In this document: piece after piece, positions 13,683-52,351 of the stretch | Numbering within the stretch: position 1 is the first letter of the stretch | How the letters are laid out: every line of letters starts with the position of its first letter | NCBI GenBank assembly: GCA_951406725.2 | Contig: OX597820.1 | Span: 128,464,001-128,528,000, forward strand | Source of the DNA: Octopus vulgaris | Lineage: Eukaryota | DNA: 64,000 nt | Direction of reading: 5' to 3' | Position numbers and translations under genes: made by a program | The notes under the pieces: generated by a model | Databases searched by the model: none | What the model was told of the DNA's origin: nothing | What the model saw: the letters and a program-made list of their open reading frames with translations, nothing else

Positions 13683-13969
13683 TTAAACTTTATACAAGTG
13701 TCTGAGAGAATAAATTAGGGCAGCAAATTTATCATTATTCTTAAAGTGAGATCTCCACATGAATTCTGTTAATAAAGACTGAAATAAAAATGTCCTTCGC
13801 TTTCGTTGACAATGTATTTTTACTCTCTGCCACATTCTGTCTATATTTCTGATGTGGATTTCTGTATCTTCTGGCTCATTGTAATCTACATATTCATGAG
13901 TATATATACCTTGTTGGATCTGGTCAATTTGAAGATATTCAGCCCATATATCAGATACAATATGGGTAC
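13683..13969 (-). CDS. Gene A exon 2: C-terminal part of Merlin/IS1595-like transposase-derived protein
   Basis: Acceptor ttttcttctag|GT ACC CAT. Translates (G)THIVSDIWAEYLQIDQIQQGIYTHEYVDYNEPEDTEIHIRNIDRMWQRVKIHCQRKRRTFLFQSLLTEFMWRSHFKNNDKFAALIYSLRHLYKV*. 287 nt, in frame with exon 1. Absent from the ORF track. Confidence 0.88.
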
Positions 13970-14084
13970 CTAGAAGAAAAAGAACTACAATGAATCTTTA
14001 TTATTTATGAGATACGAGAGATTGCAACATTCATACATTTACCGAAAGTACAAAAATTGAAAACTATTCTGATAGAGAATCAAA

Positions 14085-14595
14085 TCTTGGTCATGAATCT
14101 ACCAGGCTGTCATTCGTACTATCCTCCTCTATGGTTGTGAAACATGGCCTATGAGCAAAGGCTGGAGGTGTTCGACAATAACTGTCTCTGCCGCATTGAT
14201 CGGGTTCCTACAGCCGGTTTTTGTCATCGCCTGAATCTCCGGCCCCTCCCTTCAGTGCTTCTACAACGGCGTTTAAGGTGGTTCGGTCACGCGGCCCAGT
14301 GTCCAGAGGGTGAGCTGCTTCACAATGTCCTTCTCCCACCTCCACTTCCCAACTGGCACAAATGCACGGGTGGGCAGCTGAAGACCTGGGCAACGACGAT
14401 AAAGGAGGACCTCTCCGAACTCTCAGGTCTGCAGGTGGTCGGTCTGCACAGATGGAACCACAAATGGCTCACTATTTCCAGTGACCGCGCACAGGACTGT
14501 CGAGTGTGGGCCGCCATGGTTTGTGATGCCGTTAGAACCAGAGAAGAAGCCGGCTCAACCTGCCCTGGATGAACGCCGTCACAAGTACAAGTAGG
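14085..14595 (+). mobile_element. 3' fragment of RTE-clade LINE inside the gene A intron
   Basis: YQAVIRTILLYGCETW, RLEVFDN and LRWFGH motifs; ends in a caagtacaagta tail. Confidence 0.8.
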
Positions 14596-15184
14596 TAAGT
14601 TCGACCTTGAGCAATTGCAACACAACCAAAGCATTCTATAGGGGATTATAATTATATCGGAATTTAATGTGCAAAAAACAATAAAAATGGTGAGCACACA
14701 CATCACGTATATACAAAATGAAACTCAAAATTATGTGATGCATGTGTGCACTGCAATCATTTTAAAATTATTTTGTTGCATTAAATTCCAATATAATCAC
14801 AATCTATACTATCTGGAAAGTATTAGAATATTGACAACCAAAATAAAAGGGGAATGGGGCAAAATGAGTAATTTCTTTCTTTTTTTTTTTTTTTTTTCAT
14901 CTATTTGGAATTATTATATTGTAAGTATTGCATCATCGTTTTGTACTGTTGCATCGACTGTGGGAATAAAGATTGGTCACCATAGCTGTTGTTGTTGAAG
15001 TTGCAAGAGTCTGAAACATAGCCAGGTGACAGGACTTTTCTTTCTAGAAATTTTTCCTCAAATCTGACACAATTGTAATTGTAATTAAGGATGCTAATAA
15101 AATATCTGGATAGTTTTTGGTGTTTAACAATCTATATTCTTTTCTCTGTTGGATTCCAAGTCAATTATTTTCCACACTAATGTT

Positions 15185-48087: not shown

Positions 48088-48793
48088 ATGCCTCGTCGTG
48101 TTGGACGGCCACGAAACCCGACCAGTATTAGCAACAATGTTATGAGCGACAACGAAATCAAGCAAGAACGATGGACATTCGCTGACATTGTGTTGCAGAC
48201 TAACTCAATTGATGCAGCAGTTACTTGGCTGGCAAAACACAGACTCATAAGCAATTCTACTGTATGTCCCACTTGTGGTGACCCGTGTACAGTTGTCCGC
48301 TATCAGCAAAGTTGTGACGGGAGGCAGTGGGGATGTGCAAAGGACAGGTTTATTATGTCAATACGCGATGGTTCGATATTCGCTGGAAGCCACATATCAC
48401 TACCAAAACTTATATGGTTAATGTACTTATGGTCAAGAGAACACCAACAAATCGAGATGTCGCACGAAACAGATGTTGGTGAACGAACTATATCAGACTG
48501 GTGTCATTTCATCCGAGAGCGACTCGAATGGTTTCTGGAAGATCATCCGACTGAATTAGGTGACGATCCACCTGAAATTGGTGGATTCGATTTAGATTCA
48601 GGTGAACCAATAATTGTTGAAGTAGGCATGTTTACATTTTTTAAATCGAAACACAATGAAAAGAAACACGAAAAAGAAGGACACATGGTGTTTGGAGGAA
48701 TTGAACGCGAAACTGGGAAATGTTTTCTGGTGCCTATCGAACATCAGAATAAAGACGCTTTCGAAGCTATTGTCACTCGTTGGATTTTACCTG
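48088..48793 (+). CDS. Gene C exon 1: Merlin/IS1595-like transposase-derived protein
   Basis: MPRRVGRPRN; CPTC...WGCAKD, SIRDGSIF, IVEVGM, VFGGIERETGKCF and WILPG. Donor CCT G|gtatgg. 706 nt, phase 1. Spliced product 333 aa. Confidence 0.88.
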
Positions 48794-51700
48794 GTATGGT
48801 TAATTTCTATACATACCTGAAGTAATAGTAGTCATATCATGTAAAAATTATTTTTATTCAGATGGGTTTTTTTTTCCATCTGCATATCATGCATTCGTGT
48901 AAAAATAATTCTTGTTTTAGTCATTGGACTGCAGTCATATGGAAGGGTTTAGTCGATCAAATCGACTCTAGCTCTTATTTTCAAGTCCGGTACTTATTTT
49001 ATCAGTCTCTTTAGCCGGACCGCTATGCTACTGGGACGTAAACAAACCAACACCGGTTGTAATGCGGTGGGTGGCAAATACAGAGACCAACGCACACCCT
49101 CACGCATGCATATATATATATATATATATATATATATATATATATACACACACACACACACACAACGAGCTTTCCAGTTTCAACCAAGTTTACTCACAAG
49201 TCATTAGTTAACCCGGAGCTGCGGTAGAAGATCCTTGCCCACGGCTCCGCTTGGTGACACTGAACACTTATAAAGAAAAAGAAAGAAAAAATATTGGTTG
49301 TGAAATTCTTAATCACATATCCATGACTGCGCCTAATAAGTCGGGGGGAAAGTCGTTTCTTCTCACACATTGCCACTTGTCCTATATATATCCAGTATAG
49401 AACAAGTATTTGACAATTTCTTCTTTCCATTCACCATCACCGCCTAAAGTTATAACTACATGATTACTTTTATCTCATAGTTATATTAAATGTTTAACGA
49501 GAACTCGTTAACCCTCATCGACCATATTCGAAAAACGAGTTCGTTCAATCCACAAGAAATAGCAGTCAATCCTCTTGGGGGGCGGTATTTTGGAATGGTC
49601 ATCATTTCATTGGTGTTATTCGTGACTTAATTAGGTGAACAGTGGATTGCTCTTATGCTTCCAATAACATGTCATTTTTTTCTTTGAGAAGGGGTTGCTA
49701 GTCATTGTACAATTCCTGAAGAAGAAACAGTGTGAGTGATTCCCTGTGACCTTTCTTATCACAGTGTAACATTGCCAATTCAGAAAGAGAGAGGAAATCA
49801 ACCTTGTACTTAACAGCTACTTTAATTATCAACCCAGAAGAATGAGAAACAAAACCGATCTTTAGCAGGATTTGAACTAACTTGGAGTGAAGAGAACCAG
49901 AACAAATTCCACAAGACATTCTTCTATCTGGCATTCCAATGACTCTGATAATCTTCAGTCTTATCTTAAGAGATTAAGGACATTTCTAAAAGAATAGCAT
50001 TGCAGATTATCTAGTATAACAAAAAACTGTAATTTCTTTGGATGTGTATGTTATTGCATAGTATTATAATCCTGCACACACAAAAAGAGAAAAAGATGGT
50101 AGTGGAGGCAAATGGAAGTTACCTCCTTTCTTTCTATAACTTCTCATTTTTGACTTTTTTTGAAAATTTGTTCAATTTTATGGTTAAACATCTGTGATTG
50201 GTTATTTGAAAAATATGTATAACATAAATCTGCCAAAAAATTTGGAAAATGTCTAAATTGAAAAATTAAAGAAAAAGAAGGAAGATCATGCCACCTCCTC
50301 TTATTCCTATTTATTTATTAATTTTTTTTTCTTCAGAATTGTAATCTGTAATGCTTAAAACATATACATATTTCTTATAGTCCCATAAAATTGTGTTAAA
50401 AAGATAAATTTCAGAGAGTGTCTTCCCACCTCCTTAAGTGTAAATCTTTAGGGTGATTTAGCATTTTTAATGATATTTTCCCAGAAAATTTGACAATTAT
50501 TTCTGACAGTTATGTGGACTATGATAATGTAGGATACAATGTTTTGAAATAAAGAAAATCAATGAAATTGCCATCATGATCTGTGTACAAATTATCAACT
50601 TGGCCTTCTGAGAAATTCTACAGAAATTCCTTATAATGTTAACTCTTTGCCTGTCCTAAACATTTTCATAAGTTTGTCCTAAACGTCCATGCTTGTTTTC
50701 AGACTTTTTGTTTGCCCTTGTTTTGTACATTCTGAGTCATATAAAGCTTTTCCTTCTTAAGTACCAATTTACTATGGTGGTTGAGAAAATTTAAGAATGT
50801 TTAGCATAAATGAAACTTAAATGCAGGGAATTATGTCCTGTGTGTCATTTGTGATACACTGGACAGAAAAAAGATTCAGGACTGTCATCCTCATTTTAAC
50901 ATTCACTTCTGAGATGTCATCTGCAGAGAAGCTCAATATCATCAGCATAATCTTAGACTTATTATTGCTGTGGCAAGTGACATGGACTTTGTTACAGAGT
51001 CTGGGTTCCTTGGCTCCTTTGTTTTGTCAGTTGAAGTGTGAAGGGCTTATTTTAGACAGATGGTAAATGGTAATGGTACAAGCATATCACCTTCCAAGAT
51101 TCCTGCATTGATTCTAAAGAAATAACTGTCTCAATTAGCTTGATGGTATTTTAGCTCATCTCATGTAAAGAATCATTACTGTTGCTACTACTTTGGAAAA
51201 AAATTGCTCTCTTTTGCCTCAGTTAGAGTTTTTGAGGAATTCACAAATAGTAAGACTACTTGGGGATTTTGAGCCCTGACTCTCAACAATTCTTCTGATT
51301 GTTAAGTCCAACAGCAAACCAATATTTTTTTGTACCCATTTTGGTTTATTCACAAGATCTCATGTTTAAAATGAACAGTCCCTCAGAAAAATAATATAAC
51401 TCCAATCCTGTTCTGTTTGGAAGTAAGAATACCATATAACAAACAGAACACTTCTTTAGCTCTAAGATAAACACTGAAAACAAAATTTGAATATTTTGGA
51501 CAGTGGTATTTTCTTTTTCTGTGTGACAGAGAATAAGCAAATAAACATAATGAAGTGTAAAGAATTAAAGTATTCTCGGGTGGGATATGGAGGAAAATGA
51601 ATCCATGGCAACATAGTTGACTCCGCTAAAGATACCCAAAAGCGACAGATTAAGTCTTCCTGCCCAACAATAGGAGCAGTCCTTTCAACAACTTTACACA

Positions 51701-52055
51701 CTCTCGTCTCCATCTTGCCAAATTTCCCTCACAATTCTGTCGCTGATTGGAGATATGATAGAAAGTACACTTGCCTAAGGTACGTTACTGTGAGCTCAAA
51801 CCTGAAACCATGTTATTACTAAACCTACTTTTTAATCACTCAACTGACCCTGTACCAATAGTTATGCTTTGCTGGTAAAGAAGGCCACTGTTTCTAAGAC
51901 TGCTAATATTATTTTCATTGTGTGAACTGCATCTATAATTCAGTTTTAATTCCCAGTAGTGCTTGTGTTTATGGTGTTCCCCAGAAAGTGCATGAACAGC
52001 ACTTCTGTTTATCTGAGGTTTAATGACTGTTTAAAAATTCTTATTTTCATTGCAG

Positions 52056-52351
52056 GTACCCATATTGTGTCTGATGTATGGGCTGAATATCTCCAAATCG
52101 ACCAGATCCAGCAAGGGATATATACTCATGAATATATAGATTATGAAGATCCAAATGATTCTGAAATCCACACCAGAAACATTGACAAGATGTGGTTAGA
52201 AGTCAAGAGAAAATTGCGACAAAAACATGGAACTCGTGACAAAGTTACAGTTCAGTCTTTATTAACCGAATTCATGTGGAGGTCTCATTTTAAGAATAAT
52301 GATAAATTTGCTGCCCTAATTTATTCTCTCAGACACTTATATAAACTTTAA
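52056..52351 (+). CDS. Gene C exon 2
   Basis: Acceptor ttttcattgcag|GT ACC CAT. THIVSDVWAEY...HTRNIDKMW...EFMWRSHFKNNDKFAALIYSLRHLYKL*. 296 nt. Confidence 0.88.

Follow-up and report, generated by a model that had tools for sequence, protein, structure and literature searches.

Domesticated aspartate–aspartate–glutamate (DDE) transposase families include the PGBD, PiggyMac-like and MUSTANG genes. In octopus, a catalogue of such families lists CENP-B/pogo, ZBED/hAT, THAP, FHY3, FLYWCH and HTH-Psq (PMC10027918), and the main text of that paper does not mention IS1595 and contains no occurrence of Merlin or ISXO2. For the Merlin (IS1595/ISXO2-like) superfamily, putatively domesticated open reading frames (ORFs) are described in Stentor, Symbiodinium, Bodo and Perkinsela (PMC8101967), and Blepharisma has macronuclear DDE_Tnp_IS1595 genes, some members of which retain complete triads (10.1101/2021.12.14.471607). 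Here, we describe a family of Merlin-derived octopus genes, three of which, designated A, B and C, lie in a window of 64,000 nucleotides (nt) of the Octopus vulgaris genome (assembly GCA_951406725.2, contig OX597820.1, positions 128,464,001 to 128,528,000 of the forward strand). On the evidence of the sequence comparisons, this is a real and apparently undescribed domesticated transposase gene family.

Members of this family have been recorded before as transposon matches. A total of 191 O. bimaculoides Merlin sequences were counted in an earlier survey, and the raw matches in its S1 Appendix list all six family accessions that were looked up (PMC8101967). In the text of that survey, as far as it was accessible, protists are the sole organisms for which domestication is proposed, and the word intron is absent. 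Another study cites a collection of elements already known to be domesticated (10.1101/2021.09.26.461848). Our literature search, with subscription journals and bioRxiv supplements outside its scope, found no description of the octopus family or of animal Merlin domestication and no mention of six locus identifiers. The O. sinensis locus numbers had no match in the accessible supplements of PMC9712504, PMC11202624 and PMC9699675.

Structure of the Merlin-derived genes

The three genes are each composed of two exons. Their features, with positions counted from the first nucleotide of the window, are:

13683..13969, minus strand: gene A exon 2, with SDIW and NIDxxW, and tracts identical to B (64 nt) and C (50 nt)
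13970..18624, minus strand: gene A intron, 4655 bp, phase 1, GT-AG
18625..19333, minus strand: gene A exon 1, with Zn-ribbon, helix–turn–helix (HTH) region, first RNase H-like part and VEIDVT
23847..24133, minus strand: gene B exon 2
24134..31993, minus strand: gene B intron, 7860 bp, phase 1, GT-AG
31994..32690, minus strand: gene B exon 1, spliced product identical to database protein P0006
48088..48793, plus strand: gene C exon 1, first catalytic Asp replaced by Gly, VEVGMF
48794..52055, plus strand: gene C intron, 3262 bp, phase 1, GT-AG
52056..52351, plus strand: gene C exon 2, spliced product identical to database protein P0039
about 28321..29965, plus strand: Tc1 element in intron B, with terminal inverted repeats (TIRs) of about 230 bp and a frameshifted ORF

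Genes A and B are in tandem on the minus strand, and C is divergent on the plus strand. The spliced products have 331 (A), 327 (B) and 333 (C) amino acids, and the exons are free of stops and frameshifts; the open frames, coordinates, lengths and intron sizes given in the original prediction were reproduced exactly on rechecking. Each intron splits the glycine codon of WILPG-TH in phase 1, as had been proposed, with the donor GTATGG and a pyrimidine-rich AG acceptor. P0006 and P0039 are named in their sources as O. vulgaris or O. sinensis hypothetical or uncharacterised proteins, and an exact record of gene A was absent from the protein-database search results.

The spliced proteins were compared with the DDE_Tnp_IS1595 profile (PF12762), the cut-off of which is 27 bits. 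All eight family proteins scored above it, at 30.4–49.2 bits, with B at 35.2 and C at 44.4 bits; for A, the orthologue P0001 was scored in its place, and the A orthologue from O. bimaculoides reached 30.4 bits. When the six exons were compared unspliced, one matched, below the cut-off. The predicted Merlin motif order agrees with this match, but several motifs have to be corrected. What had been read as H-x-x-x-I-E-x-x-W is really H-x-x-N-I-D-x-x-W, the VEID ascribed to all three proteins is VEVG in C, and the shared W-x-FGGxER does not hold, as a W precedes FGG only in A, which reads FGGIEG.

The introns had also been described as packed with repeats, and the whole Tc1 reported in intron B is indeed present. 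The introns are kilobase-long and repeat-filled, but the share of them that is repeated within the window varies widely (64%, 26% and 4% in A, B and C). The claim that all other transposable-element ORFs are broken is consistent with the stops seen in the long interspersed element ORFs inspected, an inspection that was not exhaustive.

Genomic copies and the loss of transposon ends

When exons 1 and 2 of A were searched against the O. vulgaris genome, 117 and 46 matches were obtained, with 150 candidates scored for each. In both searches seven copies stood far above all other matches: A, B and C, the tandem trio E14, F14 and G14, and D18. They form three loci on three chromosomes (C7, which contains the window, C14 and C18). 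The four copies outside the window have the same intron position, introns of 2428–7865 bp, and open frames identical to database models. The amino-acid identity among the seven copies is 59–87%, and the remaining matches are 24–51% identical; those inspected are intronless, and some belong to mobile families. An intron at the family codon was not evident in any of 80 related metagenome loci. A broken exon-1 fragment of the family is also present at C14:13783385-13783700.

The absence of transposon ends around the genes, proposed in the original prediction, was confirmed. No GG-TIR with an 8-bp target-site duplication (TSD) was found within 2 kb of any of the seven genes, the best TSD among the candidates listed matching at 4 of 8 positions. 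The same scan recovered the ends of control elements: the mobile intronless Merlin L024 has GG-TIRs and an exact 8-bp TSD (8/8), and for L102 the TIR was found with a TSD of 5/8. With seven copies of 59–87% identity at three loci, the family does not resemble the many dispersed, near-identical, TIR- and TSD-bounded copies of an active element. Mobile Merlin families do occur in this genome; L011 and L012, for example, have identical ORFs on different contigs. A young dispersed Merlin family (L009, L011, L012 and L014) has about 2.9 kb in common, and no TIR was found in its fetched flanks.

Orthology and phylogeny

All seven genes have a counterpart in O. bimaculoides, with an amino-acid difference of 2.4–9.1% (100/2303 residues), which is 2.4–4.0% in five genes, 6.0% in A (20/331 residues) and 9.1% in F14. 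Synteny with other octopus species was deduced from locus numbers and chromosome lengths rather than from DNA alignment. The O. bimaculoides locus numbers are consecutive both for B, C and A (LOC106879047-9) and for the C14 trio (LOC106868236-8). The gene RPS10, located 35 kb to the left of the window, shares a chromosome of the same length with the cluster in O. bimaculoides and O. sinensis. Models exist in O. sinensis for six of the seven genes, with none standing alone for A. The O. sinensis models containing A exon 2 stop where O. vulgaris has a CGA codon, and gene A may be decaying in that species. An eighth paralogue is present in O. bimaculoides and O. sinensis and was not found in the O. 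vulgaris assembly searched; with the contig ending 26 kb beyond the window, an assembly gap could be the reason. That contig end, to the right of the window, is a (CCAT/CCAG)n satellite.

In a quick IQ-TREE tree of 65 rows, three of them Logan rows from which intron read-through had been removed, a single clade unites the 19 family rows, with an SH-like approximate likelihood ratio test (SH-aLRT) support of 100. Each O. vulgaris gene pairs with its O. bimaculoides counterpart (SH-aLRT 93–100), and the mobile octopus Merlins fall outside the clade. In a search of 1.84 billion representatives at 50% identity, the family fell into a single cluster, which scored 645 bits, and the next match scored 259 bits. 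All named members are from Octopus; additional species are indicated by unnamed Logan proteins, among which P0009 represents a separate lineage. No named squid, cuttlefish or Argonauta member appeared in the protein-database searches, which do not show absence.

The orthologues at matching Octopus clusters, the shared intron, the missing TIRs and the single-origin clade support the domestication of a Merlin transposase, in agreement with the proposal that the host captured one with a fixed intron. At the level of the gene models, these comparisons show that one Merlin copy reached fixation in an ancestral octopod, was stripped of its ends, acquired an intron and was duplicated to seven or eight genes. 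As read from the same comparisons, the duplications occurred both in tandem and onto other chromosomes, before the O. bimaculoides and O. vulgaris lineages split; hence, the local duplication that had been suggested accounts for the tandem copies, but not for the spread over three chromosomes.

Identical tracts in exon 2, of 64 nt between A and B, 50 nt between A and C, and 101 nt between E14 and F14, suggest gene conversion. The C terminus of A matches C in O. vulgaris and B in O. bimaculoides. The permutation p-values of these tracts are at most 0.004, though they are inflated because conservation is clustered.

Sequence constraint

The NG86 ratio of nonsynonymous to synonymous divergence (dN/dS) was 0.11–0.27 in all 21 paralogue pairs, whose dS values start at 0.42 and reach saturation (>2). 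These values are not near one, but they are not decisive, because control pairs of mobile Merlins with open frames also gave ratios below one (0.17–0.62). The orthologue comparison is suggestive of purifying selection in B, C and D18, which differ by 2.4–2.7% of amino acids. In contigs of another organism (organism C), the divergence from the window was 5.0% (101 of 2033 letters) in four mainly intronic pieces, compared with 15 of 478 letters in B exon 1 and 14 of 227 in A exon 2. On the unchecked assumption of about the same distance for organism C as for O. bimaculoides, about 11% of residues would be expected to change by neutral drift; constraint would then act on B, C and D18, and more weakly on A.

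Transcript evidence and the upstream inverted repeat

Contigs of four sequencing runs, the RNA status of which is a guess, were aligned to positions 13300-33100, where they were swamped by intronic repeats. None of the 15 joints listed was a gene junction, a further 3520 not being listed. Database gene models in three species do show the family splice junction, and such isoform models are normally built on junction reads. Some database isoforms join B exon 1 to A exon 2 (31994 to 13969) and E14 exon 1 to G14 exon 2, which could result from mis-mapping between similar exons. Other isoforms continue to RPS10 or C2H2 zinc-finger exons; the chimeric and read-through models include P0004, P0027, P0031, P0034, P0015 and P0062.

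The half-site ATACGAAACT, with at most one mismatch, was found within 250 bp of the ATG in six of the seven family genes. It is usually followed by its own reverse complement, over a total span of 38–40 bp, in upstream regions which are otherwise barely alignable. The corresponding features in the window are:

19366..19411, minus strand: upstream inverted repeat of A, degenerate
32736..32780, minus strand: upstream inverted repeat of B, near-perfect, with 14 of 16 pairs Watson–Crick
33030..33070, minus strand: putative promoter or 5′ end of B, CpG-rich, where one contig of run X16 stops at 33068
47881..47918, plus strand: upstream inverted repeat of C, about 170–207 bp 5′ of C

A comparable shared 10-mer occurred in none of 100 mononucleotide shuffles, although descent or conversion could also produce shared words in homologous DNA. 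Neither the intronless Merlin loci L008-L030 and L038-L046 nor the TIRs detected in 80 metagenome loci yielded the half-site. A TIR remnant or the end of a miniature inverted-repeat transposable element was considered and rejected, since the repeat was not found in the mobile Merlin loci searched and is rare in the genome. Outside the family, a near-perfect site is located at C4:9414737 and another on C1; in the genome-pattern searches the control counts equalled the observed ones, so the controls were not relied on. The copy at C4:9414737 (L064:1500-1545) lies about 30 bp before an ATGGCGG motif and may be a target site or chance, and no family gene or recognisable ORF was found within 30 kb of it.

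The inverted repeat could be a DNA operator for a dimer, with which its fixed spacing, variable spacer and lack of covariation would agree, or a hairpin in the 5′ untranslated region. The latter, serving in translation control or as a double-stranded RNA substrate, concerns regulation only and is compatible with domestication; we consider it a serious but minority possibility. The run contigs, of guessed-RNA or unknown kind, cover the exons and extend about 380–430 nt 5′ of A and B, over the repeat. Upstream of A, the contigs of two runs stop at 19753 and 19763, which is a weak hint of its 5′ end, while those of a third, much larger run continue to 19892. The fold z-scores are −3.6 to −4.2 in three of the seven upstream regions, and in E14, G-U pairs join the left arm to a right arm that is shifted in position. 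Against a hairpin, the z-scores are above −1.5 in the other four regions, covariation in the pairing did not exceed that of shuffles, Rfam gave no match at the repeat (simple-repeat matches below threshold only), and the sequence and its 38–40-bp spacing are conserved more than the pairing.

Remodelling of the active site

An AlphaFold2 model built on 111 sequences had a mean predicted local distance difference test (pLDDT) value of 90 and a predicted template modelling score of 0.88, compared with a pLDDT of 43 when 16 sequences were used. The predicted fold is that of an integrase-type RNase H (Z 12.3, root-mean-square deviation 3.7, 131 aligned). Residues 164–316 of the model match integrase and transposase cores, best those of retroviral integrases and transposases, and a Merlin transposase was not among the structure matches listed. 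A search of the ESM Atlas led to generic ISXO2 clusters. The homodimer prediction scored 0.31, against a mark of 0.32.

To compare the family with other Merlins, we used the 72 columns in which at least 70% of 98 Merlin rows from outside the family agree. At least seven of the eight paralogues keep 48 of these columns, and 24 are lost: 4 of 23 in the N-terminal half, where the Zn-ribbon and HTH region is largely kept, and 20 of 49 in the catalytic half. The losses include E179, the RKYxRG loop, W197, R217, the His of NHS, which is deleted, and the catalytic E276. This Glu is conserved in 86 of the 98 other Merlins and replaced in all eight paralogues (Asp in seven, Asn in one). The Glu of DES is also gone, the motif being DVT, DIT or GMF, and 6–7 residues are inserted before the GG motif. 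By analogy with DDE transposases in general, these motifs would serve in catalysis and target capture. Judged by these motifs, the family proteins are not intact DDE transposases; the comparison and the model show an active site for transposition that is remodelled within a retained fold.

Function of the family and alternative explanations

The family probably consists of non-catalytic, sequence-specific nucleic-acid-binding regulators. The Zn-ribbon/HTH half would read DNA, and the RNase H-like half would serve as a scaffold. The least conserved 10-column blocks among paralogues are 11–20, 61–80, 121–140 and 291–300, and sequence differences between paralogues are greatest close to the Zn-ribbon loop and the putative HTH helix, so that the sites recognised may vary from one protein to another. 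At a more speculative level, the upstream inverted repeat would be an operator bound by the family itself, leading to auto- or cross-regulation. A still broader picture seems rather unlikely as a whole: an octopod-specific, self-regulating family with diversified DNA-reading surfaces, a shared operator at its own genes, and mixing of exons 1 and 2 between tandem paralogues, as one of several independent, unrecognised animal Merlin domestications (octopus L008 and L010/L019, krill and scorpion).

Several observations weigh against such regulators. The acidic D-D-D residues are still present in five of the eight paralogues. Trp136, conserved in Merlins and located in the putative HTH, is replaced in seven of eight, and His or Asp takes the place of the fourth Zn ligand; DNA binding may therefore have changed as well. 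Gene A looks less constrained (20/331 residues differ from its orthologue, and the O. sinensis exon-2 models end early), and D18 is without the inverted repeat. The genome pattern of the repeat has six sites only, four of them at the family genes from which it was built and two elsewhere, and at this rarity it provides no target regulon.

The retained Asp residues could mean that, with a D-D-D triad, the domesticated genes retain nuclease or metal-binding activity in an altered form, for instance to repair DNA or process nucleic acids. Mariner and piggyBac function with DDD, the predicted fold is intact, and the catalytic half is the part best conserved among paralogues (0.90–0.96 in blocks 211–270). 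We nevertheless consider this unlikely, as every position of the triad has been lost in one paralogue together with its orthologues (the first Asp in C, the second in the eighth paralogue and the third acidic residue in E14), and none of the eight retains the basic loop or the flanking DE/NHS residues.

It is similarly improbable that the genes serve the host by suppressing Merlin transposons, whether as dominant-negative partners or by blocking TIRs. The genome does contain mobile Merlins, which have TIRs and TSDs and occur as dispersed families of near-identical copies, and transposon repression is among the roles of co-opted transposases (Lopes et al., PMC8101967). However, the identity of the mobile octopus Merlins to the family is only about 30%, their place in the tree is different, and neither their intronless loci nor the metagenome TIRs searched contain the half-site. 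That the genes are still-mobile intron-containing elements or neutral relics is very improbable and largely refuted already: the low dN/dS of mobile copies, the lack of a junction read among the joints listed and the possible decay of gene A in O. sinensis speak for it, but the orthologous positions are fixed, TIRs, TSDs and the catalytic Glu are lost, the introns are kilobase-long and repeat-filled, and the frames have stayed open across paralogue dS of 0.42 to >2.

Other Merlin-derived sequences and features of the window

L008 (C7:30422548-30423486) is an intronless single-copy Merlin ORF with a degenerate triad region (ELGES, ADAW), no TIR or TSD, and near-identical orthologues in O. sinensis and O. 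bimaculoides; it is probably a second, independent domestication. The intronless Merlin ORFs L010 and L019 (C12) and L013 (C3) have altered catalytic motifs (DIAES, EIGET), and the L010/L019 cluster includes O. bimaculoides members. In the krill Meganyctiphanes norvegica, the long proteins P0106, P0114, P0121 and P0145 contain tandem Merlin-derived units with a convergent change of DES to DV, and P0106 and P0121 have three PF12762 stretches each. Merlin-like proteins with altered motifs are also found in a scorpion (Centruroides, P0087) and a snail (Physella, P0109). The krill, scorpion and snail proteins suggest repeated Merlin domestication in animals. Within the window, intron A contains a long inverted-repeat structure at 16770-18028, and three tandem copies of a unit of about 2 kb (35134-41317, 91–97% identity) lie between B and C.

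Comparison with known systems

In the Merlin superfamily, for which we found domestication proposed only in protists, the octopus family would be a clear animal case. It provides a compact orthologue set in laboratory octopus species and a candidate lineage-specific regulator family for cephalopod genomics, and the upstream inverted repeat offers a direct binding test. The proteins are now counted as transposon matches and are liable to repeat masking.

The family resembles Merlin transposons in the PF12762 match, the Zn-ribbon N terminus, the motif order and the predicted integrase-type RNase H fold, with the nearest intact Merlin transposases 33–39% identical to it. Unlike them, it has an intron, fixed loci, no TIR or TSD, a replaced Glu, no RKYxRG or NHS, and the insertion before GG. 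With the protist and Blepharisma genes, as far as these are described in the accessible parts of the sources, it shares the character of conserved, TIR-less Merlin-derived ORFs, some of which are segmentally duplicated and syntenic. It differs from them in that its host is an animal, all members share an intron and have lost the catalytic Glu, and an inverted repeat is present upstream. The other domesticated DDE families are likewise host-fixed, often catalytically dead and expanded in particular lineages, with the DNA-binding part kept, while the superfamily of origin is different.

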